From: Phoronis australis
Taxonomy: Eukaryota; Animalia; Phoronida
NCBI GenBank assembly: GCA_002633005.1
Contig: NMRA01000921.1
Span: 1 to 64,000 of the forward strand
Direction of reading: 5' to 3'
Length of the DNA: 64,000 nucleotides
Shown here: piece by piece, positions 744 to 48,110 of the stretch
Numbering within the stretch: the stretch's first letter is position 1
Layout: each line of letters starts with the position of its first letter
Notes under the pieces: model-generated
The model's database searches: none
What the model was told of the DNA's origin: nothing
Seen by the model: the letters and a program-made list of their open reading frames with translations, nothing else
Program-made: the position numbers and the translations under genes

Positions 744-906
744 CATAGGCGGATCCATGGGGTAATAAGAGGTCCGGACCCCGATCCCTTTTTCCTCGAT
801 TTTAGTGATATCAAATCCAGAATTTTCAAATTGTTCATTTGGACCCCTTTTTTAAAAAATAATTGATCCGACCCCCCCCCTTTTAAAAAATCCTGGATCT
901 CCTTTG
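744..906. mobile_element. Short hAT-like MITE, degenerate
   Basis: Imperfect termini CATAGGCGGATCCA / TGGATCTCCTTTG with internal GGACCCC/GACCCC motifs; flanks GGACA / GAACA (5 bp, 1 mismatch). Confidence 0.45.
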
Positions 907-1046: not shown

Positions 1047-1078
1047 CAATGAGCTATACCAGGAGAGGAGTAGAAACG
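1047..1078 (+). repeat. Left terminal inverted repeat of the P-like element
   Basis: Exact reverse complement of 11614-11645. Confidence 0.95.
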
Positions 1079-1242
1079 ACCACGACCGCCTTTGGTCCCA
1101 TCACTGCCTCGGGTTTAATCCTGCAATTATCTTTGAATTGGTTTTCACAGTTCATTACTATCGGGTCGCCAATCTCCCAGAGGGTCACGTGTATACTATT
1201 GCCCAATCACGCAGCGTTTCCGGTTGTACACAAACCAGGAAA

Positions 1243-2777
1243 ATGGCTGCCGTCGAGTACGAGGATTGTGAAATAGAGAATAATTGTATTGAATTAGATG
1301 AAGAAGTGGACTCTGAACATGAAAATGACGTCGTGTTAGATTTTACAGACTCTCTGGGTGACAGTGATACAGACAATAGCACGGAAGGTGAGTTCAACGA
1401 ATTAGTATGTTGCTATAAAATTTCCACGCCGCATGTCATGTCGGTAAATGCCGGCGAAAATGGCGAGCTAGCAGCTACAGATTATAACGATCAGCGACTG
1501 CATCACGTAGTTACGTTTGCCTTGAATTCTGAGCGCAGTTGCTTGTCTCGCTCTAAATTAGGTACACTTTGTAGTAAATGCTTAGTGACGCACGTTGTTT
1601 TGTAGCTACATTCGTGGTTTAAGCTGAATTTCGAAAACGGCGAATTACAACTAGTTAATGTTATAATTTATTTATTTACCCACTGCATTACATTGTCTGA
1701 AATCTAGGCAAATGACTGTACTTTTAGACTTGATTGTCATATTTTTAATATTAATGTAGTAATTGTTCTATATTTCATACTTTTCCAGAAAACCATCCTG
1801 TCACAATAGACAAGATTTTACTACAAGCGTCACAGCTGCTGCAGAAAGTACTAGATAAAGTAATTAATGACCCCTTGTACCTCAGCAATGCTCGTGGTCA
1901 CGAAGTGCGGAAAGCAGCAGCTGCCTTGAAGCAGGGAGACATCAGCAGTTTTGCGTACTTTATGACAAAAGAGCTGTGGGAAATTTTGGAGTGTTGCAAT
2001 GGTAGTACATTAAGTGGATACAAAAGAATGAAGATGTTCTCAAAGTTTCATGAATTTCGCACGTCCAAAGAGTTGCAGTTAAAGTATAGTGAGTTCTTAG
2101 AAAAAAATAACGTACTGTTGAATGACAATCTGTTACTTCAGGACTTGTGCTCTAAATATTTAGAAACATTGTCTGGTGTGAAGTACAAGAATGCGGAAGA
2201 ACATTCAGAAACGGCTGCTCCTTTAACTGAAGGAGAGGAGATGACTTTGCGTTATGTGGCCGGGTACATCCCTTTCAGTTTGAAGAAACGTTTTTGTCAC
2301 AGTGAGAACGTAGTTCACAGGGAATGTTATAGTGTTTTGGACAGCTGGTCCTCGGAGAGTAGTACAGCAAGCTCATTTTTGGAATACACCACTATTTGGA
2401 CGGACAGGATCAACCGTGGTGGACTCATCAAGGTGAATGATGAAGTTTATGTGTTTTTCAGGAAGATTGAACTTGTCGTTCGGTCAATACTGAACATGAA
2501 GTTTTTTAGCAGAAAAGCTCAAGTTCCTGTTGGACAGACCATTTTAGAGACTATTTTTTCATCTGAAGAAATTCAGCACGCCTGGTGTAACATAGCAAGG
2601 GACATTGAAAGTGAGGTTTTGAGTAAGTTTTTGTTTAAATCTGTTGTCAGAAAGTATGTTGCCATTCGGGGAAGTGCATTTGCTCGAGTATTAAAAAAAA
2701 GAATGGACCACAGCAAGTCAGATAGAGTATCGAGGAAAGGTGAGAAAAGTTTGAGAAAGGAGCTCCGGAATAAGTGA
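1243..2777 (+). CDS. P-element second gene, 2 exons (1243-1387, 1789-2777), 377 aa; acidic N-terminus plus domain resembling the P-transposase C-terminal domain
   Basis: ATG 1243; donor G|GTGAGT at 1388; acceptor TTTTCCAG| at 1788; the phase-1 join (GAA) is in frame with ORF 1875-2777. Motifs LRYVAGYIPFSLKK and WTDRINRGGLIKVNDEVYVFF; AATAAA at 2816 and 2885. Confidence 0.85.
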
Positions 2778-2999
2778 CATAAAGGAACATTACAGATTGT
2801 TAATAAGTAACTATAAATAAATTAGTAGTTGATCAGTACTTGAAATTGTTGTATATATATCGTCATTAATTACTTGATGTTGTAAATAAATTATATATCT
2901 ATCACTACTTGAAATTGATGTGAATGAATCATTAACATTTGTGTATCATAGTCGAACAGACTAAAACGTATACGTCATTTACTTGGTTACATACCCCTT

Positions 3000-3268
3000 C
3001 AGTGTTCTCCACAACCTGTTTTGACCCGTCACTGCATCGAGTTTAAATTTTGCCATGATAAGTTTAATAACCTGAGCAACGAGTTTGAAATATTGGGAGA
3101 TAAGCCATTTCCTAAGCAAGTTATGACATTTTGCACTTTTGGTACTAGTTCAGCGTACTTATTTTAAGACTTACCGTATGAACCCTGCACAGACATCGAC
3201 TGTTAAACACGCGTACATGAATTTTTGAAATTCAAATTGTTTTTGAATTTTTTGTATGGAGAACATTG
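3000..3268. mobile_element. hAT-like MITE nested in the P-element spacer
   Basis: Termini CAGTGTTCTCCA / TGGAGAACATTG; flanks CCCTT / TCCTT; related termini at 19992 and 20578. Confidence 0.5.
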
Positions 3269-3508
3269 TCCTTTAGCGACACAATCCAGTGGGGGATTGC
3301 AGTTAAAAAGCAACGTTATTGGTAATTTATACATGTATTGCTACATACCAAAATCCTGGCTCACAGTACATAAAAATACAATGTTCAAAGACTACCCGTC
3401 TCATCATAAGCTTATGACCCAACCATCAGACAACCCAAGCACCTCTAGTCAAACTTTAACATAAGCGCATGCATTAACCGCCATTAAATTAATCAAGGTG
3501 TCGGTTTA

Positions 3509-3703
3509 TTGTCTGGTCACACTATAGACTACTCTGGTGTTCAGATCTTGGACAAGGATAATGCAATGAGCTATACCAGGTATAGCTCTTTGGATAATGC
3601 CACCCTCAGGCTCCTCATAAAGGAGGCTATGTATATAGGGTTGAATCTTGCTGACTGCTATCTCAATAGAAACATTTGTTCATATGAGCTCCAGCTGTTC
3701 TGA
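3509..3703 (+). pseudogene. Penelope-like GIY-YIG endonuclease C-terminal fragment
   Basis: After removing the 29-bp footprint and one TSD copy it reads GHTIDYSGVQILDKDNATLRLLIKEAMYI...LNRN, the H..d...IL...EA.yI...lNr pattern at the end of PLE endonucleases. Confidence 0.6.
3564..3592. mobile_element. 29-bp P-element excision footprint with 7-bp TSD GATAATG
   Basis: CAATGAGCTATACCAGGTATAGCTCTTTG = fused outer TIR ends (one mismatch); GATAATG at 3557-3563 and 3593-3599. Confidence 0.88.
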
Positions 3704-3777
3704 TTTCTGATTACTTCCCTTTCAATGCATTTTGACGTGTATCTGTACAGTCTGTTTTCCACCAGTGTTACCTGATA

Positions 3778-3806
3778 CAATGAGCTATACCAGGTATAGC
3801 TCATTG
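3778..3806. mobile_element. 29-bp P-element excision footprint with 7-bp TSD CCTGATA
   Basis: CAATGAGCTATACCAGGTATAGCTCATTG; CCTGATA at 3771-3777 and 3807-3813. Confidence 0.9.
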
Positions 3807-4003
3807 CCTGATAGGAATGTGAACGTTTGTCTTAAGAATGGCTTAGTGACGATAAACCAAAATGTCGATTAATACAATGTCGTTTACATATGCGCTGATA
3901 TTAAAGTTTATACTCATATTTTGGTCAAAACAATTGTGATCCTTCTTGTCATCACCTTGTCAAAGTGTACTAAGTACATGTATGCTAATAATATTGGTTT
4001 TCA

Positions 4004-7000
4004 TTATTGTGATGGCCGTGGTCTCTTTGGAATCGGGGTATCATCTACGGTTATGTTTAACCTGCGCCCAGCTCCTCTTTGACAGTTACCCGTAACTGGG
4101 TGAATACTAAATTGTCCAACAACTTGAAAGACTTGTTCATTATTGGTGAATTGTTGAAGTGTTGGGGCAGAATTTGTGCCACATGCTTTCCTATGTTTAG
4201 CAAAATGCTGTTCGATGTTATCTTGGCAGCAAATCCTCTCACTCAGGATGTATTCTACCCCTGGTTCACTCAGAAGTTCCTTACATAAGCCTGGAAACGC
4301 CTTTCCTGAAAAATAAGAAACAGTACATAAAAGAAAAAATGGGAACTGTTTGTTACTTGATGTACTTATGTTCTGGTAAAAATGGACATTGCTAAATTTT
4401 GATTAAAACAATGAAAACGTCTTAATTCTTTTGTTATATAAAGAATAAAAAACCTAACTTCTTTAAAAAAATACATCTCTGCTTGTAGCTCATTCTTACT
4501 CTAGAAAATTGTAAGACAGGAAATTCTACTTCAAGAATAAATTGCTTCTGAACAGTATGAAGTTGCAAGCTTATTGCCTTGTAACTGTTATTCAATAAAG
4601 GATGTCCTATTTTTTTAAATTTTATAACTGAACAGATCAACTAAAGGAAAGCAAGGCATGACATGCCAACAGTAAAACTCGCAGGACTCGATTAAGTCCG
4701 ATCTTCACTTAACTAGGACAAAGCTCGGTAGAACTGCATCTATTTCCTAATAACACCCAACAGATGAATTCACTTTCGCCCCATTCAGACGAATTAAAAA
4801 TTTCCCTGCACCATCGGATCAAACTTAAGTTCTACTGCAACAACAAATACTGATTTACCTGTAATACGCCACCCTTCAAGAGTTTCTCGACTCAAACAGC
4901 ATCTACTTCGTTCATCTTTCGAAAGGTTTGGAATATGACTTATTTCATCTTCCCATTGATTGAGCCACTGTAAGAACTCCTCGATCCACTGCAAAACATG
5001 AATCACGAGAGGAATGCTCAATAAGATGCGACCACCGAAAAAAACAGTATGCACTTCAAAATAGTAACTATTTGACAAAACCAAAATGCAATGTTTTCAT
5101 TTCTCGCATGAAATGGTGTTTTACTTGTCTGTGCATACTGGGTTCACAGAAAGAAACGGTATCATACCCAAATTGTCATTACAATTGTATACATAAACTT
5201 ACTAATGACTAATGAATCACTGAATTAAGATGTAACGGGAATAACTTACTTTAAAGCGGAAGTCATCGACATGTCTGTAGGCATACTTAAAAACTTTGTT
5301 CGAATTCCTCCCTTCGTACAGGCTCCTGACATTTAAGCAGTCAAACATCTTGTCAATCATTCGAACAAACTCTATGCAAGACGTCAGTTGTGGATGACCT
5401 TGCAGCTCCAAAATAAGGGCAACGGTTTCACTTAAAACCTAGAAGATATCAAATTGAAAAACATCTAAAAAACGATTTTCAAGACTAATAAAACTCGCCT
5501 CAGTCGGATCCAACCAGGCTGAGAGATTTTGTCCCAGTTAGGCAAATCCATTTTTTCTCTTGAGCTAACTTTGTAAAGAGAACTGCTCGGGTGCAGCAAA
5601 GATCCAAATCATGGACGTGCGACGTTCAGGAGAGATTACTGAAAATGAACATTGCAAGAACTATATACATGATTTTTTAATAATAGTTTTGGCCATATAA
5701 TAGAAATAAGACATGAGCATGGTCAGGAAACATATTACCGAATACTTTATCATACACAGTACTCTACCTGGGCTGCAAGGTGGACTCTCATTCTTGAATA
5801 AGACCTAAGGTCGATATGGTCTTGAGTAAGTTTATTAAGCAGCATGAAACCAGGAACTGCTGGATTCCGCATCAGGTCACCATAGTACGCATTTGTGAGC
5901 TGTGTCCAGCGAATTGGCTTACCATGAAGCTGCAAAAGTATGTTAATACTAATGAGAAAATCATTTTGCAATAAGGCTGTAATAAAAGCAAGTTTGAACT
6001 TGGACACTTTCGTGTCATCCATGTAACCATGTTCACACATATAAGAACCCGTGTTTTTATCAAAGTTGAATAAAGAACATGTCACGTTAGTGTTCAACAA
6101 TTCAGTTCTTTCTATAAGATGATGAATTTTGACTTTGAGAAAGGTCAATGAGAACAGGTAGCTGTTCCTCCTCATATACCTATTTGACCAGGATGAAAAA
6201 AATTAAAGCAACGACGTTTAGGTGCATTAAAATATTAGTTTTTCACAGAGAGTACTTAAACTATAACATACCACCATATTTCTAGTATTCTTGTTGCCTC
6301 CTGAATTTTCCCAGCAGTTTCGAGTAGTCTTCACCAGATGAGGCGCATCGGCAATGAAGTACAGGTATCTTGTGGTGGGAGCATATATGTTGACTGTCCT
6401 ATAAACAACAGCATTCTGTGCATCTGCTGGTAGCTTGTGCATACGATAAAAACGGCGGTTTGGTGTAGCTCCATCACAAACTGTAGCTCTAACCTTTAAA
6501 CCGTGGGTTTCCAGAGCACGTACACATTCCCACACGACAGGGTAAAGCTGGTCCGAATTAAAACCAACACATGGATAGTGGGCAACGGAAAAACAGTACG
6601 AATCTGTAATACCCTGTGCCATGAACAGCAACACGTGTGTAGCAATCTGAGGCAAGACCTCGCCGCTCTCGATGTTTGCAGCAAACGCAGCCAACTGTTC
6701 ATTAAATGAGCCCGTGTTGCACTGACCGATTACTTTTCCTGTGGCCTTTGAATATACTAGGTCTGCCTTTACTTTCATTTCGTCAAAAATGAGCACAACA
6801 TTTCGTTTGTGCTCAGGCAAAGAGTCAAATTTAATGCTGTTCAATTGCTGTGACAAAAATTTCACATCTACCACCCCATTGTCCAATGACATGTGGTGTT
6901 CATAATCAAACAATGTTCTTGTGGATGGCAAGAACAGAAAGCCTGAATTTTTTATAAAATCGTATGCTGCCTTAGATAGATTTTTTAGCTGTAGGCACCA

Positions 7001-9183
7001 CTTTAACATCATAGGATGCCACTTCATGCTCTTGCTATTTTGAAGTTCCAACATCTTTTTCTGTTCTTTCCACAACAGCATCTGCACAGAGTCTTTTTCA
7101 ACTTTGTCAGTTAGCTGTGCCTCATTTTCAGATAGTATCGTTTTAAGACACTGGTGCACTTCCTCTGATACCTCCACGCCTTCCTCTATAATTGCTTTAC
7201 TTACTCGCTCTGTCAGTCGCTTGTTGTTTCGCTTTTCCATTTTTTCGTTGTGTTTAATGTTTGTGCATCGTTCCTCTAACTCGTCCCTGCTTAAATAGCT
7301 TAAGCCAGTTTTGGAACTGGCTGAGGTGCGTTGCGAACGGTTTTCTTTCGCACTGCGATGTAACTTGTTCCTCAGCACAGCTCTGTACTTAACACAGCTT
7401 GAACACTTGGTTCCATTAATGAGCACAGGACAGTCCTCATGACGAATCGTGCGACTATAAACTTGGCCACTGAAGACTCGAAACAATTTGCACTCCCTAG
7501 CCACAACTTTTCTATTTGTGTCATAAAAAACTGCATCACCCTCCCCTTGACAACACACTTCAAAAAACTTGTCCTCTGGGTTTCCTGGACATACAGTCGC
7601 AAACAATGCAGTTCTGAAGAGAGGCTCACAGGTTTGCAGTAATCTTGGAACCTTCCTCAGGCAGTTGCTGTGAGTGACACTTTTGCCAAGTGCTTCAGCT
7701 TCCCATGAAGTATCGTTATTGACCGTAAACAAATGCGAGAAGATGGGCTGTCTAAAGCTGTTGATTCGCTCAAATGACTGGAGCTTTCCAAATGTGACAG
7801 AATTTTGCGCATCAGAAATTTCGATCAGTCCAAACTGACTAGCTTCCTTGCGAGCTTTAGTAAGAAATGCATCGGTACTAGTAGGCGAAATCAGCTCCTC
7901 CTAAAAAGCACAAAAAACACTATCTGAAGTTGAGTAGTAACATTTGGCACATAATACAAGATTAAAAAGAAGTGTTGCTTATGAAAACTGAAACCAGTTT
8001 CTGAGTGAGGAATCCACGACCGAAAATTTTAGCATACACAATACTTCACCTATACAAGCTTTTCTGAACAAGATAAAATATACTCTACCTCACAATGTTC
8101 ATTTGAAGGTTGCAGTAACTCATGACACTCCACTGCAAGTGTTTTAGAGCCATCTGCTTCTGGTTCATCTCTGACCGCTAGCGCTCCAGACTGACTTTGT
8201 TCAGGTGACAAGAATTCGTCAACCTAAGAAAAAATGTTGAATCAAAAATTTAGGTGGGACAAGCACATATTCAGACTACGTTTACCAAGTATAACTAATT
8301 TAATAAGAAAAATACAGTAGTAGCCGCTTTATAAACCCACATAGCAAGGAATCAGTTGTATTAACCAGCTGGACTTTTACCCAGCAGATATTAATGTTTT
8401 TTACCACATTTTGGCTTAAGTGATTGAATGGACTTTTTAACTACAGATTTATAAAGTGACGGCCACTGTAATAAAACAGAAGTATAACTGACAGCAACGT
8501 GAAACGATCTGAATGAGATCTTTACATCAACATTTTTCTGGTACAACAAGGGCGATTAATTTGACTTGGCAGTATCTTTTGGGTATGGATTTTAGTATTG
8601 TGCCAAGCAAGGATTTTAACTACCTTGGGAATGGGTTTTAAAAAATCACCACCACATTGGGAACCCTGTCGAGGTATTGTGCTTATCTGGATTTGAACTT
8701 CTCAACGACACACCCATTTTGTTTTTTAAAGGGAACATGCCCTGGCATCATTGGAATAGCATGAACTTATACCAATATACCTCATTTCCAGTCTGCGAAG
8801 ATGCATCAGACACATTTTCACTGGCAACCTTTAGCTGCAAGGCACCGTCAGTTTCAGATTCTGTTGATGAATCAGCGCGTGATACCTAAAGAAATATAAC
8901 ATTTAGTTGAGTGATAAATCACTAGCTACAACAGTGAAAATTAATGAAATAATCCAGGAGCACGATTGTGTAATAAAAGGAGAGATATGGTAATTATAAG
9001 CACGAAAGCTAAGTTTTCTTTCAATTGATCAGAAAATGAGTTATACCAGCAGTAGTGCATTGGAAATTACTTCAAGACAAAATATAGCACAATAATTACC
9101 TCAGTCTCGGGTTTCTTTAAAATGTTTCCATTGTCAATGTATGTTCGTTTCTTCCTGTAAGTCAAACCTCTCCGTTTGCCCAT
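4004..9183 (-). CDS. P-element/THAP9-type DDE transposase, 8 coding exons (9183-9100, 8885-8781, 8223-8089, 7900-6272, 5929-5768, 5438-5250, 4988-4859, 4305-4004), 911 aa
   Basis: All introns GT-AG, and the joined frame is open (2736 nt). Motifs KWHPMMLKWCL..S..AY...LPS.RTL, IFDEM (D1), VCDGA (D2), DAPHLVKTTRN, MRVHLAAQVLS, FDCLN, QDNIEQHF (E); ends DDTPIPKRPRPSQ*. The first three short exons are less certain than the catalytic ones. Confidence 0.88.
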
Positions 9184-9439
9184 TCTGAAACAGCAAGCAG
9201 TTGGCAATTAAAGCTTGATACCTTTGAACCTCTTTATGTTATTAGTAAGCAAAAGACATTCATTCAATGAAAACAGATACAAGTAAAACCTTATATTATT
9301 TAAAAGTAATACAAAAGTTTAACACTAATAGCAATGTGCGGGAGTAAATTTGAATATTTTTGAGCCACTACACATATAGGGTAAGACATTCCGCATGACA
9401 CGCATAATGTTTTTGCAATGTCAATATTACTGCTTTCTT

Positions 9440-10950
9440 GGTGAACTAAGAATAAAAAAGCACAAACTTGCTGGGAAAATTCTGGAGGTATTACATAAAC
9501 CATGAAGGACGCGACCAGAGGAACAGATGTGGAGACTACTTAGTTCGGAGCCAGCCCACTAGACTACATGTATTCTATACAAACCAATCTTAATTCAATC
9601 ACTTTTATTGCATACCAGGTGAGCCAAGGATCATAAAAAGCACAAACATGAAGGGATTTCTTACTCTGGGAAAATTCTGGAGGTATTAAATATACCATGA
9701 AGGACCCGACCACTGGAGCGGATGTTGGGAATTATTTAGTTCAGAGCCAGCCTACAAGAGACGCAGCATAGACTATTCTATATGCAGCAATCTTAATGCA
9801 ATCACTTTTAGTGCATTCCTAGTGAGCCAAGGATCATAAAAAGCACAAACATGAAGGGCTGTCTTACTCTGGGAAAATTCTGGAGGTATTAAATATACCA
9901 TGAAGGACCCGACCACAGGAGCGGATGTTGGGAATTATTTAGTTCGGAGCCAGCCTACAAGAGACCCAGCATAGTCCATTCTATATACAGCAATCTTAAT
10001 GCAATCACTTTTAGTGCATTCCTAGTGAGCCAAGGATCATAAAAAGCACAAACATGAAGGGCTGTCTTACTCTGGGAAAATTCTGGAGGTATTAAATATA
10101 CCATGAAGGACCCGACCACAGGAGCGGATTTTGAGAATTATTTAGTTCAGAGCCAGCCTACAAGAGACCAACCATAGTCTATTCTATATACAGCAATCTT
10201 AATGCAATCACTTTTAGTGCATTCCTAGTGAGCCAAGGATCATAAAAAGCACAAACATGAAGGGCTGTCTTACTCTGGGAAAATTCTGGAGGTATTAAAT
10301 ATACCATGAAGGACCCGACCACAGGAGCGGATGTTGAGAATTATTTAGTTCAGAGCCAGCCTACAAGAGACCAACCATAGTCTAGTCTATATGCAGCAAT
10401 CTTAATGCAATCACTTTAAGTGCATTCCTAGTGAACCAAGGATCACAAAAAGCACAAATATGCTGTTTTTTTTTACTTTGGGAAAAATCTGGAGGTATTA
10501 AACATACCAGGAAGGACGTGATGAGAGGAATGGATATGGAAACAATTTAGTTCAGAACCAGTGTACTAGATACCCAACATAGTCCATTCTATACTCACCA
10601 ATCTTAACCTTTAGTATATTCCTGGTGAAGCAAGGATCCCAAAAAACAGTAACATATTGGGTTTCCTTACTTGGGGAAAATTCTGGAGGTATTAAATGCA
10701 TCAAGGACACAACGAGAGGAACCGATGCTGACACTGGTCAGCTGGGAACCAGCCTACCAGAGACCCAAAATAGTGTTTTATGTACTCAAGGACCTTAATG
10801 TAATTACTTTAATTGCACTCCTGATGAGCCGAGGATCACAAAAAGCACAAATGTTTTGGTCTTTCTTCCTTGGGGAAAAAATCTGGAGGTTAGACATAGA
10901 AGGAACGACGCGAAGAGAGGAAATGAGAATATTTAGTTCTGAACCACAGG
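9440..10950. repeat. Tandem array of about 203-bp units (about 8 copies) inside the P element, upstream of the transposase ATG
   Basis: Anchor GGGAAAA(T/A)TCTGGAGGT recurs at about 9473, 9668, 9871, 10074, 10277, 10480, 10674 and 10873; central copies nearly identical, edge copies diverged. Confidence 0.9.
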
Positions 10951-11519
10951 CAGTCTAGGTAGAATCAGCAAAGGCCACATACAAACAGGCATTTTAACGC
11001 AACATACCACTTCCAGTGCAGTATTCCTAGTTTACTGTTTAAAAAAGTATACTTATGCCAAAAACTTTGCTCCTTCTCAGCAAAACGAATATAGTTGAAA
11101 ATTCGTGTGCCATGTCAAAATGGCAGCAAAGTGGTGTAGTCGGAGAACCACTCACCATATGCTAACTTTTTCTACCCTTCATTTGTTCAACCTACTTTTA
11201 ATTCAAGTAACAGGATTAAATCAATCTTAACATTAACAACCACGAATAACAGTCAAACACGAGTAAGCCTAAGCGTGTTCACTAAGACATTACCTCAATC
11301 ACGACGGCTGAATTCTACAGATTTTGATAAAAAGAGGAAAAATCTCACCTTCTTAATCACTTCGAAGCAACGCAGGACATTGACGATCTTTCGCACTTGG
11401 TGCAAGTTGACTGACTTCAAATAAATCGAGAATCTTCAATCGTCTTGAAATATCAACTTTCTAATCGATCACACAATAAAACAAAATGGCTTCCACGCTT
11501 ACTTTCTACGATTGTCGTC

Positions 11520-11592
11520 AAGCACGTGACCGTAACAGAGTGCGAACATCAAAGGACACCGAATTCAATAGAGCAGCGCGCTGTGATTGGCC
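11520..11592 (-). promoter_or_regulatory. Putative transposase promoter elements (CCAAT box, E-box)
   Basis: ATTGG at 11586-11590 (CCAAT on minus) and CACGTG at 11523-11528 just inside the right TIR, mirrored by CACGTG 1186 and CCAAT 1203 inside the left TIR. Confidence 0.35.
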
Positions 11593-11613
11593 AGTTTTGC
11601 TGGCTATTGAAAC

Positions 11614-11645
11614 CGTTTCTACTCCTCTCCTGGTATAGCTCATTG
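11614..11645 (-). repeat. Right terminal inverted repeat of the P-like element
   Basis: CGTTTCTACTCCTCTCCTGGTATAGCTCATTG, exact reverse complement of 1047-1078. Confidence 0.95.
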
Positions 11646-14302
11646 GCTTGAATTTTCAGCAGGGATAGATTCGTCATGAATGCTATCACAAATGCCTTTT
11701 TGTGGAAAGTGAAATGGCATTCATATTTTAGGTTTGTGAATATTGAGTGACATAATGTACTTGATGAAAGCCAGAGACACTTCAGAGGTTACGAGGCAAC
11801 AAGTTGAGTTGAAAACACCGGAACAAATATGGCGTACACAGCATCTCAAGGTTGGGTCGAACAAACATGGATGAAAACACTAGCGATCATCCCATATGAA
11901 CCCTATGGAACACCTCCGATTGCTGTAATGCAGATTAGTCTGGAGTAGAATGTGTTTAGAACGTCCACTAGTATGGTAATAACTGGATATAACCTCNNNN
12001 NNNNNNNNNNNNNNNNNNNNNNNNNNNNNNNNNNNNNNNNNNNNNNNNNNNNNNNNNNNNNNNNNNNNNNNNNNNNNNNNNNNNNNNNNNNNNNNNNNNN
12101 NNNNNNNNNNNNNNNNNNNNNNNNNNNNNNNNNNNNNNNNNNNNNNNNNNNNNNNNNNNNNNNNNNNNNNNNNNNAGTGTATTGTTAAAATAGGTATTTC
12201 GGGTCTTCAGTTGTCTCACTGGTTCAGCTATATAATTTCTAGCTGCTGTTCACGTTACCACAGAAAGCTTGCCATTGCTATAAACTGTGTGTCAGTTTGA
12301 GCCATATCCCTCAAATTGTTTATTCAATGCAACTCTTGGAAAGTAGTCCCATCCAGTCAGTTGTGGTTTTCAGTATGGGTCTGATGTGTCTGTCAGCAAT
12401 TAGCCTGGTGTTTATTGTAGTTAGATATTGTTTATGATAAGGGCTTGAAAATTCTGAGACCAGGCGAACTTTTGTCATGCCACAGATTCCTGTAAGTTTG
12501 GTTTCAGCATTTTGAGCTTAGTGCGTGGAGCACGTTTCACTGAGAAATAGTTCAGCTGGAGTTTTGTCAGTGACAGAATGTGGCGTGTTGCGATATGAGA
12601 ACAACAAGTTTGATAAGCGGTGCGACAATGGCAAGCGTGCATCAGATTTGTCTAACATGTCTTTGAAAATCTGCACATAACGTTTCGCCTGTCCATTAGC
12701 ACGATGATAAATGGGACTGAACGTGTGCTTGACACCATTCAAGCGTAGAAATGTCTCAAATTCTGCAGATCGAAACTGGACCATTATCTGACACATAAGC
12801 TCATGGGGCAAGCCGTAAGACGCGAACAGTTAACGAAATTTCACAATGGTGTGAGTTGAAGTCGTTCCCAACATGGGAAACACCTCCAACCACTTCGAGT
12901 GGCTATCCACAACAATCAGATAATCCTTGCACCCTTTTCAGCATAATCAATGTGTACTCGTTGCCAGGGCCTGGTTGCCCATGGCCACGGAATCTGGGCG
13001 AAGGTTTTGGCATGTTACGAAATCGAGCACAATAACCACACAAACGCACTAAATCCTCAGTAACAAAGTGAATCGAGTAAGTCTCCACTTTAGACGCAGT
13101 TTCTGACTGATCCACGGGAAGACGACTCAATGCATCAGCATTTGCATTCAGATGTGATCGCTTGTGCTCAAAATTGTAACCGGATAACACCAATGCCCAG
13201 CGCTGTAAACGAGTAGCTCCGATCGTTGGAATTCCTGCCTTAGGCCCAAAAATGCGAGTAAGCGACTCGTGGTACAGTCACAAGAGTGAACATACTGTAC
13301 GACCAAATAAATATAAGTGAAAATGCTTCACACCAAAAATCAGAGCAAGTCCCTCTTTAATCTGCACTTGTGCATAGTTCTTTTCTGCAGAACTAAGTGT
13401 CCGTGAAGCGAATGCAATCGGTTTATCCAAACCATCAGGCATCTTGTGGCTTAAAACCGCTCCCACGCCATAGGAACTAGCATCACAGCTTAATTAGGAC
13501 AAGCGGTCTTCTAGGATCGTAGTGCACTAACTCATGATCACTTAACAGCTGGCGCTTACATTCAACGAACGACTTCTCGCAGGCATCACGCCAATGCCAT
13601 ATTCGACATCCCATGCAGCAGTGCATACAAAGGGTGTAACAGAGTAGACAAATTACGAATGAACTTGCCATAATAGTTCACCATTCCGAGAAGCGATTTT
13701 AGTTAATCCACAATTTTAGGTGGAGGAACCTGTGAGATAGCCGCTACTTTGTCGGCTAAGGGTCACACGCTATCCACCGACAAGGAGTGTCCGAGAAACT
13801 GGATCTCCGACATAGCAAATTTACACTTTGATCTGTTCAGCTTTATGTTATATTTGCTGAAACGTGCAAACACGAGTTCGAGAGTGCGAAGATGTTGCTC
13901 TAGGGAATGGCCTATCACCAAAATGTCATCGATGAAACATATAACGTTATCAATACCGGACAAAATTTTATCCATTGTAGCCTGGAAAATGGATGGTGCC
14001 ATTTTACTCCAACTGTTAGACGGCGTGGTCGCAACAAATACTTGTGAGTGTTCAAGGTGAGTAAGTCCAAAGAATGGTCATCTAATCGCAACTGATTAAA
14101 TGCACCCACCAAATCAAGCGAAGAGAACACACATGGCGTATTATCACCACGTGCCAGCTTGGCAAACAAGTCTTGAGTATTAGGTAACAGATATTTGTCA
14201 TCCTCTGAGTGTTCAATAATTTGTAGTTGCCACAGACGCAAATAGTGGGACCAAAGAACTTCACTTTCCTGACGTTCACAGTGGGCGACGCCCAGTTACT
14301 AT

Positions 14303-16249
14303 CCCGGGTGAGAATTTTACACGTTTGACACGCTTTTGAGCGTGTCAAACGTGTCAGACGTGTAAAAAAACGTGTAATACGTGTCAAAATTGCCACGTCA
14401 ACGTGTAAAACGTGTAAAAACATGACACGCTAGCGTGTCAAACGTGTAAAATTTGCCACGTTAGCGTGTCAAACGTGTAAAATTTGCCACGTTAGCGTGT
14501 CAAACGTTTAAAATTTGCCACGTTAACGTGTCAAACATGTAAAATTTGCCACGTTAGCGTGTCAAACGTGTAAAATTTGCCACGTTAGCGTGTCAAACGT
14601 GTAAAATTTGACACGCTAGCGTGTCAAACGTGTAAAATTTGCCACGTTAACGTGTCAAACGTGTAAAATGTGACACGCTACGGTGCCAAACGTGTAAAAT
14701 GTGACACGCTACGGTGTCAAACGTGTAAAATTTTGACACGCTAGCGTGTCGAACGTGTAAAATATGATAGAACTCTTCAATAAAGATACAATTTAAATAG
14801 GCTTGGCAGTTCTGAAAAGGCCACTGGGAGGTAATCACCCAATTTGAATGATTAAACATGTTCCCTCAATAACATCAAAGAGTTTGCAACAAAAGTTTTC
14901 ACTGCCTATTGAAATATCCAAACATTGAGTTAGAGTTGGTTTAGCTGTCAGAGAGTGCAGTCCTCTCAGGAGAGCACTTATGAAGTATGGTTTTCGAGTG
15001 TGGTGCAGCTCTAACAGAAGTTTAGTATGTATATACTCTGGTTGACAGTGGCTTGATAAACTTTTCTTGCAAATGGTCCTTCTTTTTACAGGTAAGTTTG
15101 ATTGTAACAGAAAACAAGAGTCAGTAGAAACTGTTGACTACGCAGTTAATATATGAAGTTGGAACGCCTCTCATCTTCAGTAGTATATCAATTCATAATA
15201 TTGTTGTTATTGGATCAACTCACATTTTGTGTCAGCTTGAATGAGGATAAGACATTGTGTTTAGAGGTTTGGGCTGCAAAATCAACATGAACTCAATGTT
15301 ATGACAAATGTTGAATCACTCTTGGTAATTCAAAGATGTTACAAAGTGCGTCTGTTCTTTACTTCATAAACTGTTTTCAAGCAACTGGCCTGACTCAAAA
15401 GCTTAGACTTATATGCATATATATAGCAGCTTAAGCACTTCAAATTTGTATGTTGAACCATTTTCTTATTTCTGTGTTAATGTTATTCTAGATGAAATGA
15501 AATTTAGTGACAACAGTATGTGGTAAGAGTTGGATAGTTACATTATCCTTTTAATGATTCTATATCATTATCACATTTTGGATTATTTACATCAACAGTA
15601 ACAATAAACTGTGACTTAAAGAAGAAATCCCTTTATACATTTGCTTTCAGTATGGATTCCCATGGTGGATGGTGAGCTGCTATAAACAAGAACATTATGG
15701 CTTGTACACGGCCTCAGGCTAAATGTAGGGTCGCTACCATGGCAATGACACAGATTACAGGCTAGCGTGTCAAAAGCGCCACGTTTGACACGCTAGGGTG
15801 TCAAAAGTGCCACGTTTTTGCCACGTTTTGGCAAGCTACATTCGACACGCTATCGCCACGTTTGACACGCTAGCGTGTCAAAAGTGCCACGTTTTTGCCA
15901 CGTTTTGGCACGCCACGTTCGACACGCTATCGCCACGTTTTACACGCTTATCGCCACGTTCGACACGCTAGCGTGTCAAAAGTGCCACGTTTTTGCCACG
16001 TTTTGGCACGCCACGTTCGACACGCTATCGCCACGTTTTACACGCTTATCGCCACGTTTGACACGCTAAGCGTGTCAAACGTGGAGTATTGGAACGAAAA
16101 TTACACGTTTTTGACACGTTCTTGACACGTTTGACACGCTACATTTTACACGTTTGACACGCCACGTTTTACACGTTCGACACGTTTTTAGAGCGTTCCA
16201 ATACTCCACGTTTTTAGAGCGTGTCAAACGTGTCAAATTCTCACCCGGG
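14303..16249. mobile_element. Non-autonomous CACTA/EnSpm-like element (CCCGGG termini, 2-bp TSD AT), copy 1
   Basis: TIR CCCGGGTGAGAATTT; subterminal arrays of about 31-bp GTGTCAAACGTGTAAAATTTGCCACGTTAGC units; AT duplicated at 14301-2 and 16250-1; removal restores the Gypsy RT frame VEHSNWASP. Confidence 0.85.
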
Positions 16250-17235: not shown

Positions 17236-18853
17236 CCCATACCAAAAGACAATGTTTGCCGCAAGCTTGCAGCAAACATGCCGCAAGCTTGCGGCAAACA
17301 ATTTTGTTTGCAGCAAACCAGCCGCAAAGTTTGCAGGAGTTTGCCGCTACCCGCAACTCAGTCGCACACATTGCCACAACCTTGCTGCAAACACTGAAGT
17401 TTGCAGGAATGTTGCGGCAAACTTGGTGATTGAAAAAGTATTTGCGGGAAAGTTGCAGGAAACTTTATTGTTGAAAAGTGGTTTGCGGGAAAGTTGCGGG
17501 AAACTTTATTGGTGAAAAAATGTTTGCGGGAAAGTTGCAGGAAACTTTGTTGATGAAAAAGTGTTTGCGGGAAAGTTGCAGGAAACTTTATTGGTGAAAA
17601 AGTGTTTGCGAGAAAGTTGCAGGAAACTTTATTGGTGAAAAAGTGTTTGCGGGAAAGTTGCAGGAAACTTTATNNNNNNNNNNNNNNNNNNNNNNNNNNN
17701 NNNNNNNNNNNNNNNNNNNNNNNNNNNNNNNNNNNNNNNNNNNNNNNNNNNNNNNNNNNNNNNNNNNNNNNNNNNNNNNNNNNNNNNNNNNNNNNNNNNN
17801 NNNNNNNNNNNNNNNNNNNNNNNNNNNNNNNNNNNNNNNNNNNNNNNNNNNNNNNNNNNNNNNNNNNNNNNNNNNNNNNNNNNNNNNNNNNNNNNNNNNN
17901 NNNNNNNNNNNNNNNNNNNNNNNNNNNNNNNNNNNNNNNNNNNNNNNNNNNNNNNNNNNNNNNNNNNNNNNNNNNNNNNNNNNNNNNNNNNNNNNNNNNN
18001 NNNNNNNNNNNNNNNNNNNNNNNNNNNNNNNNNNNNNNNNNNNNNNNNNNNNNNNNNNNNNNNNNNNNNNNNNNNNNNNNNNNNNNNNNNNNNNNNNNNN
18101 NNNNNNNNNNNNNNNNNNNNNNNNNNNNNNNNNNNNNNNNNNNNNNNNNNNNNNNNNNNNNNNNNNNNNNNNNNNNNNNNNNNNNNNNNNNNNNNNNNNN
18201 NNNNNNNNNNNNNNNNNNNNNNNNNNNNNNNNNNNNNNNNNNNNNNNNNNNNNNNNNNNNNNNNNNNNNNNNNNNNNNNNNNNNNNNNNNNNNNNNNNNN
18301 NNNNNNNNNNNNNNNNNNNNNNNNNNNNNNNNNNNNNNNNNNNNNNNNNNNNNNNNNNNNNNNNNNNNNNNNNNNNNNNNNNNNNNNNNNNNNNNNNNNN
18401 NNNNNNNNNNNNNNNNNNNNNNNNNNNNNNNNNNNNNNNNNNNNNNNNNNNNNNNNNNNNNNNNNNNNNNNNNNNNNNNNNNNNNNNNNNNNNNNNNNNN
18501 NNNNNNNNNNNNNNNNNNNNNNNNNNNNNNNNNNNNNNTTGAATTCATGAAGTGGGAGACGATAGGATAGACGAAACAGAATCGACTAAACAACATTGAA
18601 TTCAGTAAACAGGATAGAATATACAAAACAGCATTGAGTTCACGATATAGAATCGACGAATGTGGATTGGATTGATGTAATAGCATTGAATACACAAGAT
18701 AGGATTGAATTGTCATACAGTTGGCATTGAGTTCATTAAATGGAATTGAATATACATTTTAATGTTTTTTGCATAAACGGCCGCCCATACTTGCCGCAAC
18801 CTTGCGGCAAGCTTGCGGCAAGTGTTTGCAGGAAGGCTTCTTTTTCGTATGGG
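17236..18853. mobile_element. Non-autonomous CACTA/EnSpm-like element (CCCATAC termini, probable 2-bp TSD GG), spans an assembly gap
   Basis: CCCATACCAAAA ... TTTTTCGTATGGG; subterminal TTGCCGCAA motifs and 41-bp tandem units at 17420-17673; removal with one GG restores the gag frame FGPRDE. Confidence 0.75.
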
Positions 18854-19270
18854 GGGCCAAACACTAACTGGTCACAAAGTGCCATGTTGAGATGATCCCC
18901 ATAGCCACAAAGCAATGACAACCGCCGCAGATCGGTAATGAACTCTGTGACACTCTCATGCTCCTTCTGAACCCGCCTGGTAAAACAAAAACGTTCTGAG
19001 ATTTCCAAAGGCTTAGGTTCGTAATGCTCCTCTAACAACTTCACGATGTGCGAGTATGCTTTGTCCTTGGAAAGATCGGGCTTCGTCAGACTGCGTAAAA
19101 TACCATAGGCCTCCTGCCCAATGACTGTAAGGATGGCAGACACCCGTTTATCACCTGCAATGTCATTCAACTGAAAATACTGCTCGGCTCTCACCACATA
19201 AGTACTCCAGAGTTCAGCCGAAGCATCAAATATTGCAGGTTCCCCAGATGTGCCATCCTCGTCGCCAATT

Positions 19271-19420
19271 TGTAGTGTAATACTGATAATTGCTAAGAAA
19301 AGAGTATATTTCTACTTAACTCAAAACACGTGATCCCGGAAGCTCCGCTAAAAGAGACTTCTCGTGGTGATCTCACAAACTAGTGAGCAGGGTATACCAC
19401 ACTCACCACACCACTCAACA
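19271..19420 (-). repeat. Putative 5' LTR of the Gypsy element
   Basis: TGTTGAG...ACTACA on minus, directly followed by the PBS; no second LTR available to confirm the outer boundary. Confidence 0.55.
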
Positions 19421-20578: not shown

Positions 20579-21312
20579 ATAGTACGCGCCTTCCTAGCTA
20601 GGTGCTTTTAACTGAACAAAGGTCAAGTTTTTAGTAGTCTTCGATTCTTCCCTAGCAAGATCAGTAAAACTTGCATTCTTTTTGAAGGACGGAAGTTTGA
20701 AGTGTATAGCCGTGGCTAAATACCGACAGAGCGCCGAGGCTCGAGGTCGACAAATTATGCGCGCAATGATTTTTTCAGGACTGTCGGATCTTATTGACAG
20801 ATTGAAGACGTTACTGTAGAATTATAGAACAGTAGATAAGGTATTTTTCGCATGTACACGGTGTTCATGGACTGGGCGCTTATTTTAGCTGAAAATGCGT
20901 GGGGGGGGTGATTATAGGAGCATGGGCACTTACTAGGGCGAATACGGTATATTATAATGGTTCACACTGAACTTCTTTAAACATGGGATTAAACTACATC
21001 CATTAGTTTAGAGCAGTGTCCATTTTGTTAAAAACATCAATAATAGACAATTCTTCATTTATTTAGCACACAATGCAGCGACAAGTAAAACTTCATTATG
21101 TCAAATTTTGCATAAAAGATAACAAGAACATTTTAGTCAGTTGTCAATTCGCTCGTTCTGTGTAAAAGTCATACATAACATTTTGTTAGGGTTCCCCTAT
21201 TTGTAGTTACTTATAATGAGCGTTTAAAAATGAGAAACTATAATATTGGCAATTATTGTGGTTCAAAGCAATAGAAGATATATAATAGTTATGCCACAAA
21301 AATGTTACTTAC

Positions 21313-21681
21313 AGTCCACAACAAGCTGGCTTTTTGAAGATTTAACTTTGCCGCCAGTAGCGCCCACTGCCACAGTGTACTGGCCTTCATCATCGGGTGT
21401 AACTTGTGACAAAGTGATGGTGAAGTTAGTTTTTCCATGCGAGTAGTCTGTAGAGCCACGAGATTTAAAGTCACTATGAAATACTCCATCAACATTAATT
21501 GTAGAGGGTGGCATAAAGTAAGGGGCTTCAAACAAATAACTGCCATCCCATTTCTTCAACACAACTTTGGTAAAGGTTTCACCACTCCCCATTGCATAAC
21601 TTATCTTGAATTCAGCATTTCCACCATTGACACCAGTGACTGTAGGAGTTGAAGTCACACTAAGGGCTGAAACAACAACAC
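21313..21681 (-). CDS. Ig V-type domain exon lacking the canonical cysteines (probable N-terminal domain of IgSF gene B)
   Basis: TTTTCAG| acceptor, |GTAAGT donor, 369 nt, phase 1-1; VVVSA/LSVTSTPTVTGVNGGNAEFKISY...FKSRG...NFTITLSQVTPDDEGQYTVAV...SQLVVD. V-set D-x-G-x-Y motif present, no Cys. Signal-peptide exon not located. Confidence 0.8.
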
Positions 21682-23843
21682 CTGAAAAAGGAAAAAAGCA
21701 AAAACTTACACATTTAACTATACAAAGTATGACTTGCCAGTCCATTGACCCCTGGCTACTGTGTCTCAACTGCAGGACAACAAAAGATTTGACACAAAAC
21801 TGTCACTTTTGTTAGTTTTGTAAAAAGATTTAACTACTGTGTTGTTGTCGGCCATTACATGAGTTTTGGTTCAAAGCTGAGCACTTCTTTTTAGAGACAA
21901 TGATATCTAGAAATTGACTTTTCACATTGCAAAATTTTTAGACAGGCTGGTTTTTGTGATCGCCGCAAATTCAAATATAGTTTCTGAAACTAGAAAAATT
22001 AGCCACTCAGATGAAATGGGCACCATTAAGGTTATCTCCAACCTTATTTAGTGGCCTCTATTCTAACTCGTATATCAAAAAAACTAAGCTTTGTCAGCTN
22101 AGTTATATAACATGTTGCACTGTAAAGGTGGGTGACAATCTGCCACAGATGCAGCAGAAGGATGCATCCGCCCACCCTTTAGAGACAATGATATCTAGAA
22201 ATTGACTTTTCACATTGCAAAATTTTTAGACAGGCTGGTTTTTGTGATCGCCGCAAATTCAAATATAGTTTCTGAAACTAGAAAAATTAGCCACTCAGAT
22301 GAAATGGGCACTATTAAGGTTATCTCCAACCTTATTTAGTGGCCTCTATTCTAACTCGTATATCAAAAAAACTAAGCTTTGTCAGCTAGTAAAAGTACAT
22401 ATTTTCTGAAAGAAAAAAGATTAGGGAATATGAAAATACTTTTTGAATTAATGTACCATTATCCTTTTTACACAAAAAACCTATTGCCCAAGCCAAGAAA
22501 AAGCCGAATAAACTGGGACAAATGAAAATTTCACAGTCTCCGGTTAATTATTCGGTGAAAACTTGTTTTTGGTACACATATTCTATACAAGACTTAAATA
22601 TGTTCGCTATTTCAACATTCACTCGCAATGTCAACTGATTTTGCAGTGCGTAATTAACTTCATTATCATTAAAACGTATAGTTACCAGCAAACTCTTACT
22701 GTTGTTTGCGACCTTTTGGCCTACCTTTATGTAAATAGGTCACAGTCATGTCCTGAACACATCCACTAAAACAAGAAACTGTAGGAACACTGCATTTATC
22801 CAACTTCACTCTTATCAGGCTTCTATTGTGAGTCAGCATGTGTGAATAATTGGCTGATAAGCCACCTCTTGGAACTACTTTTGGCTGAATGGATGACCAG
22901 GCAATAAAATGATAATTAGCCAAGACCAGTTACTATAATGCAACAAAGAATAATGTCTTGCATCACCTAGCCTTGGTGGAAAATGGTATACTGTATTGGC
23001 TCAAACAAACGCTTAGAAAAATTCATTTCACGGGGAGGGGACGCTTATTGTAGTGAGCCTACGGCAGTTGAATCCCGGTTTCCCAAACGGGTAAAATCGG
23101 AAGCTAGGATTCACCAAATTTACGCTTTGTGACGTATTTGTAGCCTATGACAGCCTTTCTAAAAAATTGTGGTGCATTGCTATCAACTTCCATTGTTAAA
23201 TTACGATAATTTTTCAAAAAATTGGGCTCATCACAGGGCGAAAACTTGTCGACTGATGCGTCGCTGAATTGCGATCGTCAATAGGAAAACTTGTACTCTT
23301 GAATAAAAATATAGTTTCGACTCAACAAATTACCTGAAATCTTCCTGATGTTTTACAATTTTTAAAGTTCCTGTGGAGTCCAGATTAATTGCGATTAAGT
23401 CCAAATGTGCGCTACATCGTACTCCACAACACGAGAAAAATCTCTGGATGAACACACATGTTGTTGTCACGTGACGTTTGTTTTGAAGGTCGTCTGCGTA
23501 TGAGAGTGAGTGAGCGTGCGTGTGCGGGTCATCGACGATAGACTTTTTTGTTACAAAAGGCGGAGGATTATGCAAGTAAATGGCGTTTACTAGATTGTTT
23601 TTCACTTGAACGGCTGTAACGTGCAAGGTGAGTGCTGGTTAACTCACAGATTTTGTGTGCACAGGCCGACTGTCGTTAGTTCTGCCGTGGAGTATTAATA
23701 GTCCAAGGCTCGATCTACATGTTGGGGACGAAATGAACTACCCGGGCTGTGTGAAATTTCTGGGTCTAACGGAGACACTGACGCAGTGCAGGTCAGTCAG
23801 ATCGCTGTATCAAGACTATAGTCAAAATCCAAATTCGTTTTAT

Positions 23844-45720: not shown

Positions 45721-47759
45721 CTGCAAATTATAATTAAGTTTTATATTAAATATTCATATCTATAAGCAACAGTTGGTGCACAGCAGAAAGATGCAGGATG
45801 TGAAAAGATACTGTGCATGTATAGTTGTGACACATGGAATGTCCTCATTTTCTAAATGGCAATTGTGGCAATTGCACTTCATTGAAATAAATGAAGTTGA
45901 ACGTACACAAGTATTCCGTAAGTTTTTGGATTGGAAACAGGGGTTTGTAGCCAGGACCCGTAGATCTAATCTATGTCCACGAGTGTTTAACTGGCCGGAC
46001 AACCTGTATGACGTGGTCGGAGCACCACCACCACGTGGATTCTGGAAGTACGCCATTGCAGCAAATCCATGGATGACTGAGCAAAAGAATCTTCAAGCAA
46101 ATGGTGAACTAACAAAACTTGTGAAACTTGTTGATGAAGAATTTAAGTTCTACTCAGAACACCAAAGTGATGTTCCATGAGTCTGGATACTTCGATAACG
46201 TGCAAAGCAAGGTGCTCCCGACGATTGTCATTGGAATTGAGTAATGCCTGAGAAGTCACATGATGACAAAAGTAATGTTGATTATCAACAGAGTAGCAAT
46301 TCACCAGTCTGTCAGAATTATGCAGAGGTCGATTATATAGTATGCAACCAAAGACCACTTGAAGTTTTTAGCTAGCTTGTGAATACATCAAAACAAACAC
46401 GTCCCGTACAATATTTCATCAAAATCCTTCAAGCACCACGTTAAACGGACAGGTCCGAAAATGAAGGTCAGAATCTGATGTATTCTCTTCAACTGAAACA
46501 CATACATCATAATACCACTATATCAATTATGGGGCTTGTTAGAATTTGAGATAAAACACAAAAAAGAAAAGAAAAGGCTGGTATTAATCATCCTTTGAAC
46601 CCTGTAGCATAAAGAGATGAATAGTAACTGAAAAACCTGGAGACGTAAACATAATAAAAATGGCCGCAGGGGGAAAATTGGTATCCAATTCAAAATGGTG
46701 AGGTGTCGTCGTCTCTATAATATCAAAATATTTACCTAATTTGAAAAAAAATCTGTCCAAAAATTGGGTATAGAATTTAAAAAACAACTTGACATTAGGG
46801 GGCAAATAAGAGGATAAACCACCATTTTATTCAAGCTCAACTTGAAACAGACAGCTAGATTCAATATACGCGACTCACACCACATGAGAGGGCAAAATTT
46901 TTGTAGCAATTATTCGTAAGCAAGATCTCCATTTCAGGACCGACCAAACTTGTGATAATTATACATCATTTGCGTTTTCCAACTACACAAACACACCAAC
47001 TTGCAGCCCTGAGGGGGCCAATGTTTGGACAATTTCTAGTGTGGGTGTGTGTGTCAGTGACACCACACTGAACATTGACGCATTAACACATATAAACAAT
47101 CTCAGATTCAGTGATTGTAAAAGAGATGACGGGTTCACTGATAACGCTACTTCCATTGACATGCCGGCACCACATGTACTCGTGAGATGCGGGAATTGGT
47201 GGAGATGACGTGACACCTCCACAAGTCAAACTGACTTGATCCTTGATGTAGTAGTCAAATGGTGATCGTTTTTAACATACTTGAATGTCAGCATCGGTTA
47301 TAGGCACTGATGCTGGTTGAAAAATTAAAAGAAAAGAAGCCATGAAATATACATTCTCAATCTAATACGGCAAGGTGAAATTCCTTGTCGAAACCCACCA
47401 ATTGCACTTGGCCCATATTATGGAACGAAAACTGCTAGGAACTGTACGTAACTGCGATGAAGGGATACGTTAACACAGCACTCTCTAATGATGATGAATT
47501 TCTATATAACAAGTTTATTCAATGTATTTCAACCACCAGTCCTGAGGTATGTGTTGTGATTTTTGATTCAAGAATCAATACATTAAACTAATTAATTTTA
47601 ATAATTTATCTTTTGCACCAACTCAGTTTCAGATTTGATGGAGAAACGTTACATGGCTTGAGTTCTCCCCCCACCGCCTGCCTACGTAGGGAAGACTACT
47701 TGGCATTCAAGAAGAGCAGAAATCATCTTCAATCTCTTTTCCCTACATCAGGGGGATTT

Positions 47760-48110
47760 CAGAACACCTATATACGTCTAGTTTATATCCCTGATGATGT
47801 CAACACCTATAGGAAGCCCGTTAACAGCCTGAGAAACGAACTAGTCCACCTCAAGGATCCCACCCCCTCGATCCCCAATGTTGTCATATCTCAAATGTCT
47901 TGCACTGAAGATCCATCTCATACCTACATCTGTGAGACTAAGCGATCCCTAGGTACCAGAATCAAAGAGCACAACAAACTGGACAAGTCCACAAGCATGG
48001 GAGAACATCCCGGAACATCTGGCCATACTGTAAGTGGTAAATGTGCCAAAACACTGTCTAAAGAAGAGAACTGGATCTCAAAGGAAGTTAAGGAATAATG
48101 AGACACAATA
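47760..48110 (+). pseudogene. Penelope-like GIY-YIG endonuclease fragment
   Basis: KPVNSLRNELVHLKDP...VISQMSC...YICETKRSLGTRIKEH...GEH...GHTV matches the PLE GIY-YIG pattern (YIGET.R.L..R..EH). Confidence 0.7.

Follow-up and report, generated by a model that had tools for sequence, protein, structure and literature searches.

P elements are treated as single-gene transposons. A locus in the genome of the phoronid Phoronis australis raises the question of whether the transposase of such an element can be divided between two genes. The element lies at positions 1047-11645 of a 64,000-nt stretch of contig NMRA01000921.1 (positions 1 to 64,000; hereafter, the window), spans 10.6 kb, and holds two intact convergent genes between its terminal inverted repeats (TIRs): a transposase gene on the minus strand and a second gene, here called gene 2, on the plus strand. 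The initial annotation described perfect 32-bp TIRs around two convergent, intron-containing genes with open frames, and coordinates, frames, and complementarity all proved correct: the TIRs are 100% complementary over 32 bp (33 nt counting one flanking C/G pair). The element is an intact, transcribed P-superfamily DNA transposon. Its transposase lacks the C-terminal domain (CTD) of P transposases, and the gene 2 protein is predicted, from a structural model, to carry the fold of that missing domain.

The transposase gene has eight coding exons that encode 911 aa in an open frame. The catalytic residues are D481, D584, and E843, and a DxxH motif occupies residues 626 to 629. The stop codon lies 68 aa past E843 on a spliced exon, so that the CTD is absent from the transposase polypeptide, as had been claimed on the basis of an end ∼70 aa after the catalytic motif. 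With Pfam, exon 4 matched PF21787 (E 4.9e-22) and PF12017 (E 5.6e-4), exon 6 matched PF21788 (E 8.2e-5), and the last exon matched PF21789 (E 7.8e-5); the matches to PF21788, PF21789, and PF12017 are to single exons and fall beneath the curated cutoff. By its sequence, the core is a P-type RNase H DDE domain with a DxxH motif and a GTP-binding insertion. Pfam gave no THAP domain match on coding exons 1 to 4 (the short exons 1 to 3 were scanned one by one), and a transposase exon used as the query had no match among PDB sequences. A second copy of the transposase, ∼88% identical over window positions 6610-7332 (87 differing letters in ∼720 bases), was present in the X1 DNA contigs.

Expression and splicing were evaluated in raw RNA reads from a single separate study (three runs, X5, X6, and X7), with 18 to 19% of each run read; depth was ∼2 to 12, and 131 loose ends were unlisted. 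All seven transposase coding introns were spliced as modeled in X5 and X6 (8+9, 7+20, 3+8, 2+8, 7+3, 7+9, and 8+6 reads), and the intron in the 5' untranslated region (UTR) was supported by 11+9 joint reads. For the gene 2 intron, no joint was listed in X5 or X6, where depth was under 1, and the model rests on splice signals and frame; the junction check proposed at the outset thus bore out the transposase introns and not that of gene 2. Among the listed joints, none led out of the stop-containing last transposase exon, either to an extra exon that might supply the CTD in cis or to gene 2. Reads over the transposase were nearly all of one orientation and those over 2208-2961 were of the opposite one (6.17 and 4.35; 1.7 and 5.9 versus 0 to 0.2), which fits convergent transcription; positions 1831-2207 showed both orientations at low depth. 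Transposase-strand reads, at a depth of up to ∼4, also covered a 203-bp tandem array (window 9471-10890) whose units are ∼90% identical. Both genes were expressed in the same two runs, X5 and X6, while X7 had hardly any reads over either gene, which may reflect absence or silence.

Gene 2 has two exons with GT-AG intron ends and encodes 377 aa in an open frame. We modeled its exon 2 with AlphaFold2 on 150 sequences and compared the model against 48,161 chains with VIA-align. The model was all-helical, with a predicted local distance difference test score (pLDDT) of 90.8, and the best chain was 6p5a_B, the CTD of the Drosophila P transposase (Z 12.1, root mean square deviation 2.2, 118/118 residues, 20% identity); the runner-up chain reached Z 7.4. 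Residues 192 to 357 of gene 2 cover the whole modeled CTD of 6p5a_B. Foldseek placed 6p5a_B at rank 8 (probability 0.97, target TM 0.60, E 0.38). Profile A2 of gene 2 aligned with 6p5a_B in three colinear stretches (E 0.25), and weak matches to PF12596 (E 0.002 to 0.03) were found in 6 of the 64 relatives scanned out of 150. Profile A1 had no match among PDB sequences, and the ESM Atlas contained no usable match. The suspected resemblance to the P CTD was thus recovered as the top structural match, with weak but independent, colinear support from sequence. Pfam returned no match for gene 2 or its four closest relatives; PF22824, a precomputed annotation of the relative P0003, was not reproduced by our own scan.

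According to the model, gene 2 exceeds the lost domain by an additional helical domain of ∼130 aa ahead of the CTD-like part. This domain (residues 55 to 185), folded alone, had a pLDDT of 92.5. It had no Foldseek match, and its best VIA comparison reached Z 6.3 amid many ties, with 6p5a_B at Z 4.9, so that no fold could be assigned to it. These comparisons did not demonstrate an internal duplication. The proposal that the lost CTD became a separate gene at the opposite end of the element therefore stands as regards the predicted fold and falls short as regards the extent of gene 2, which is not the CTD alone. The acidic leader described in the initial annotation is present (Table 1), and the last 38 aa form a basic tail with 14 K/R versus 4 D/E. 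Two arginines are conserved among the aligned rows, R342 in 144/150 and R371 in 140/150.

Is gene 2 a feature of this copy only? A five-sequence profile, searched against 1.84 billion cluster representatives at E values up to 0.001, matched 4,029 clusters, the best 150 of which are 115 to 535 aa long. The family is one of stand-alone proteins: a transposase match was found in 0 of 153 relatives. The named clusters (11 of the 20 looked up) are all uncharacterized or hypothetical proteins, and their hosts include a brittle star, a sea star, a crinoid, a sea urchin, a sea cucumber, an amphioxus, an acorn worm, and a sea anemone. By pattern, fingers occur near the N terminus of some relatives, PHD-like in 8 and C2H2-like in 6 of the 153, several of them supported by Pfam. 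No fused gene 2-transposase form was present among 7,983 candidates of 938 to 2675 aa; typical fused transposases of 700 to 900 aa lie outside this range, so this is weak evidence. Two related transposases, P0007 (residues 1 to 81) and P0008 (residues 41 to 111), have a weak N-terminal match to RAG1_imp_bd (PF12560, E ∼1.5e-4, under the cutoff) in the place of THAP.

We then examined 16 loci, at least 14 from metagenomes and 2 from genome contigs, in a search that started from gene 2 and in which lone transposases were uncounted. A convergent P-type transposase accompanied the gene 2 relative in 7 of the 16 (L002, L004, L005, L006, L007, L009, and L015), and these are 7/7 of the loci with >3 kb downstream of that relative, so that the pairing recurs as far as a search from the gene 2 side can tell. 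Eight other loci had no transposase match within the ≤1.6 kb available downstream and are uninformative, given stop-to-stop spacers of 13 to 1,564 bases. Two elements are complete, L006 (4,877 bp, TIRs of 22 to 34 bp) and L015 (5,821 bp, TIRs of 40 bp), both with a perfect 7-bp target site duplication (TSD). When the last exons were aligned (n = 7), the stop fell at about the same place after a basic P-K-[RK] tail. Gene 2 is 29 to 39% identical among elements. Between L004 and L006, the ratio of nonsynonymous to synonymous substitution rates (dN/dS) was 0.132/0.596 = 0.22 for gene 2 (208 codons) and 0.081/0.685 = 0.12 for the transposase (173 codons); in this one pair, gene 2 is thus shown to be under purifying selection, and the other pairs were saturated. 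Trees of gene 2 and of the transposase were both unresolved, and a large-exon tree with one out-of-frame row was discarded. By eye, the reading frames of the L004, L005, L006, L009, and L015 transposases appear interrupted at the intron positions of the window, namely, behind the large exon, behind LAAQ, and ahead of the last exon. The intron-containing, two-gene L015 element (9424-15244) sits on a contig filed under a bacterial metagenome-assembled genome (Nitrospirales) and is likely animal host DNA binned there. In viral contigs, 0 of 72 candidate stretches gave a further locus.

Evidence of activity comes from the spacer between the two genes, where an older multicopy repeat contains two scars that the initial annotation did not mention. 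In the palindrome of each, the first 17 TIR bases from the left overlap the other end at the near-palindromic bases 13 to 17, and perfect 7-bp direct repeats stand outside. The empty form of scar 1, which skips 36 bp, was found in RNA reads and in 10 X1 contigs, and other copies of the repeat are without these 36 bases. For scar 2, a related repeat copy without the scar was identified (joint 3773/3818), and a variant 2 nt longer, seen in 9/24 X6 reads, fits 17+1 or 19. At other loci, two contig joints have their breakpoint at TIR base 17, one of them with a 2-base ambiguity. The fly P transposase cuts 17 bases into the TIR on one strand (PMC7776569), and end joining of the long tails in flies gives TSD-flanked TIR-to-TIR junctions (PMC2895639, Table 1). 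Because of the scars, the empty forms, the fly-like form of the footprint, and the base-17 joints, we conclude that some enzyme recognizing these ends inserted with 7-bp TSDs and then excised. That enzyme was probably the 911-aa transposase, and the scars probably formed in place. P-type excision with a stagger of ∼17 nt fits the scars, and the value may be exactly 17. In the X1 to X4 contigs, window positions 1047-1063, the first 17 TIR bases, were joined at other loci to 11593 and to 11614, i.e., to the last 32 to 53 bases of the element; these joints are small deletion derivatives or repair scars. The TIR pieces of the spacer were also considered as the ends of two abutting elements, which we rejected, since no two ends have a 7-bp flank in common and every piece is flanked by a repeat of its own.

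How might the two proteins act? On the basis of the model, we think it probable that the gene 2 protein is a distinct, trans-acting subunit that carries the missing CTD and docks onto the complex of transposase and DNA. Cleavage by the 911-aa transposase would produce a long stagger of the P type (∼17 nt). The gene 2 protein would hold the long single-stranded transposon end, and its basic last helix would reach the target DNA like the fused CTD in the fly complex. Docking or chromatin targeting would fall to the additional N-terminal domain and, in some relatives, to the PHD or C2H2 finger. In the fly CTD, a basic helix extends to the target DNA and the looped single strand is contacted (PMC7776569); the conserved arginines and basic tail of gene 2 sit at the end that matches this DNA-contacting end. 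A split would plausibly arise at a domain that is attached by a flexible linker. Several points weigh against a CTD subunit. Sequence similarity of gene 2 to the CTD is not significant alone (E 0.25; Foldseek E 0.38, rank 8), and a Z near 12 to 13 calls for care with an all-helical domain. No TSD surrounds the 1047-11645 copy (flanking 7-mers AATAGAC and GCTTGAA), which looks single-locus by depth in DNA contigs of one sample, probably the source of the assembly (∼44 to 49, versus 43.9 for the left flank, in X1); the mobility of this copy itself is thus in doubt, and a joint of left to right flank was absent among the listed joints of these contigs (22 further joints are unlisted). The seven paired loci represent four sequence families from few samples, with several decayed copies, and in L003 (1870-2797) a transposase last exon directly follows the gene 2 relative on the same strand, a layout that is a rearranged copy, a nested arrangement, or a misassembly. 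Scar length sets only a lower limit to the cut depth. Finally, in a preprint (10.64898/2026.08.31.747927), CTD deletion left excision and integration by the fly transposase unchanged in HEK293 cells and raised THAP9 integration by ∼60%, from which it follows that the domain may be unneeded for catalysis. Two cnidarian "TNP-CTD" entries of the same preprint might be stand-alone proteins like gene 2. L008 and L011 match L003 only as far as the start of its same-strand last exon.

The preprint results agree with another reading, which we hold to be possible if doubtful: the transposase acts alone, and the gene 2 product, dispensable for catalysis, is a regulator that tunes activity by binding to the ends, target DNA, or chromatin, probably as a damper or as a selector of target sites. 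The acidic leader, comparable to the acidic hinge of RAG2 that inhibits transposition (PMC7204232), and the finger patterns of some relatives point the same way. However, elements with only 29 to 39% identity in the gene 2 protein retain the gene inside their TIRs, in frame and under purifying selection, which is simplest if it aids movement, and its conserved basic residues map to the part of the fly CTD that touches DNA. It is extremely improbable that trans-splicing or an unseen exon joins both genes into one full-length transposase, so that the split would exist in DNA only. The low RNA depth, the fraction of each run read, and the unlisted loose ends leave some room for such a product, but the stop-containing last exon was spliced in 8 and 9 reads, no listed joint links the transposase to gene 2, gene 2 starts from an ATG exon of its own and has 190 aa ahead of the CTD-like part, and the seven aligned last exons share a conserved basic tail ahead of the stop. 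We also regard as very improbable that gene 2 is a passenger or the remnant of a nested P element and that the 911-aa enzyme is truncated and inactive, or a repressor like the fly 66-kDa protein. The missing TSD around the whole element and the TIR-derived sequence in the spacer, which could suggest two abutting elements, would suit this explanation; it is nevertheless already largely refuted, as the inner TIR pieces are scars with their own 7-bp direct repeats and empty sites rather than ends, all three catalytic residues are in place, the same layout occurs with TSDs in L006 and L015, and the gene 2 relatives lack a transposase core. Beyond the CTD subunit itself, one may speculate, with little confidence, that these elements form an old, large lineage of marine-invertebrate P elements with an obligate two-subunit transposase, whose CTD subunit often bears a PHD or zinc finger that steers insertion, RAG2-like but independent; the two-gene state would be ancestral, and the CTD of fly P and human THAP9 would have arisen by fusion.

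The job of the P CTD is debated, since the domain grips both transposon and target DNA in the structure and is dispensable according to the preprint. A natural split allows the CTD-like domain to be supplied or left out in trans with no need for engineering, and the 1047-11645 copy suits such a test: its two genes are transcribed and have intact frames, reads support the transposase splice sites, and its ends and scars have been identified. Our results also suggest a likely function for many invertebrate proteins now labeled "uncharacterized," a large family with 4,029 clusters at E values of ≤0.001 (the best 150 were examined). Repeat annotation that looks for a transposase only would overlook one half of the element. 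Should PHD-bearing partners steer insertion, they would offer a separable targeting module for P-type vectors.

The features of the element are collected in Table 1. Its two E-box-like 9-mers, one by each end, are the only occurrences in the 64 kb. For 3/3 TIRs, fold-back pairing was no better than that of shuffled sequence. High-copy repeats lie on both sides of the element (window 760-900 and 11640-11996), followed by an N gap from 11997. Elsewhere in the window, we noted by eye two exons resembling immunoglobulin domains of a host gene (21305-21802 and 57922-58326, minus strand), a fragment resembling a retrotransposon gag (18736-19311, minus strand), and a fragment resembling a GIY-YIG/Penelope-type end (47592-48098, plus strand).

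Table 1. Features of the two-gene element, in window coordinates
Feature	Positions	Strand	Description
Left TIR	1047..1078	+	32 bp, begins CA
E-box-like 9-mer, close to CCAAT boxes	1183..1191	+	Putative gene 2 promoter element
Gene 2 exon 1	1243..1387	+	Acidic leader: residues 1-50 with 20 D/E and zero K/R
Gene 2 exon 2	1789..2777	+	Helical domain (∼55-185), predicted P-transposase CTD-like domain (192-357), basic tail; stranded reads 2208-2961
Multicopy repeat, older, approximate limits	3451..3909		Like a miniature inverted-repeat transposable element; degenerate inverted arms with 77% likeness across 64 columns; loose ends and high contig depth; contains both scars
Scar 1	3557..3599		29-bp TIR-end palindrome (3564-3592), 7-bp direct repeats GATAATG
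Scar 2	3771..3813		29-bp palindrome (3778-3806), 7-bp direct repeats CCTGATA
Transposase last exon	4004..4305	-	E843, then 68 aa with basic P-x-P-K-R tail, stop; PF21789
Transposase coding exon 7	4859..4988	-	GTP-binding insertion region by position
Transposase coding exon 6	5250..5438	-	GTP-binding insertion domain, PF21788
Transposase coding exon 5	5768..5929	-	Start of GTP-binding insertion by position
Transposase coding exon 4	6272..7900	-	Cys/His-rich region, coiled-coil-like stretch, helix-turn-helix (HTH), RNase H N-terminal half (D481, D584, DxxH)
Transposase coding exons 1-3 (9183-9100, 8885-8781, 8223-8089)	8089..9184	-	Low-complexity N terminus, no THAP match
Transposase 5' UTR intron	9185..11348	-	2,164 bases; contains 203-bp tandem array
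Second E-box-like 9-mer, CCAAT box closer to end	11523..11531	-	Putative transposase promoter element
Right TIR	11614..11645	-	32 bp

The element shares with the P superfamily a DDE core, TIRs, and a TSD of 7 or 8 bp, the last with 7 bp in both scars, L006, and L015 and not around the 1047-11645 copy. Like the 87-kDa transposase of the Drosophila melanogaster P element (PDB 6P5A/6PE2) and vertebrate THAP9, its transposase combines an HTH, a split RNase H domain, a GTP-binding insertion, and a DDE triad; with Drosophila P it further shares a CA-starting TIR of ∼31 to 32 bp, a CTD fold within the element (here predicted), and TIR-to-TIR end-joining scars. It departs from the canonical P/THAP9 architecture in that no N-terminal THAP match was found and the predicted CTD fold, together with a further helical domain, belongs to the product of a second, convergent gene rather than to the core polypeptide. 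The TSD of Drosophila P is 8 bp long, in contrast to 7 bp in this 10.6-kb element. By TSD length, the element resembles Galileo and 1360/Hoppel (PMC3698922), which are described there as intronless, whereas two genes with several introns at shared positions are found here. No published description of a two-gene P layout was present in the full-text literature searched, a scope that leaves out Repbase, Dfam, and subscription papers, and the available portions of PMC10983969 and PMC6431247 contain nothing on such a layout; repeat libraries may already list two-gene P families. Among other eukaryotic DDE transposons, Kolobok lineages (KolX, and KolobokP with its His-Me nuclease) have a second gene, on the complementary strand in one lineage, but they belong to another superfamily, and their accessory genes encode unrelated enzymes or folds instead of a transposase domain that has become detached (PMC9587614). 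The closest parallel in layout is the one drawn in the initial annotation to ProtoRAG/RAGL, in which RAG1L and RAG2L are likewise convergent within one TIR pair, in overlapping host groups (PMC7204232), and some second proteins of both systems carry a PHD finger or an acidic stretch. The parallel does not extend to homology: ProtoRAG/RAGL combines a Transib-type, RAG1-type enzyme and hairpin chemistry with a kelch-propeller, PHD-bearing partner, whereas the core here is P-type and its partner is modeled as all-helical. Unlike the kelch partner, the second protein of the Phoronis element appears from this model to be a homologue of one domain within its own transposase family.

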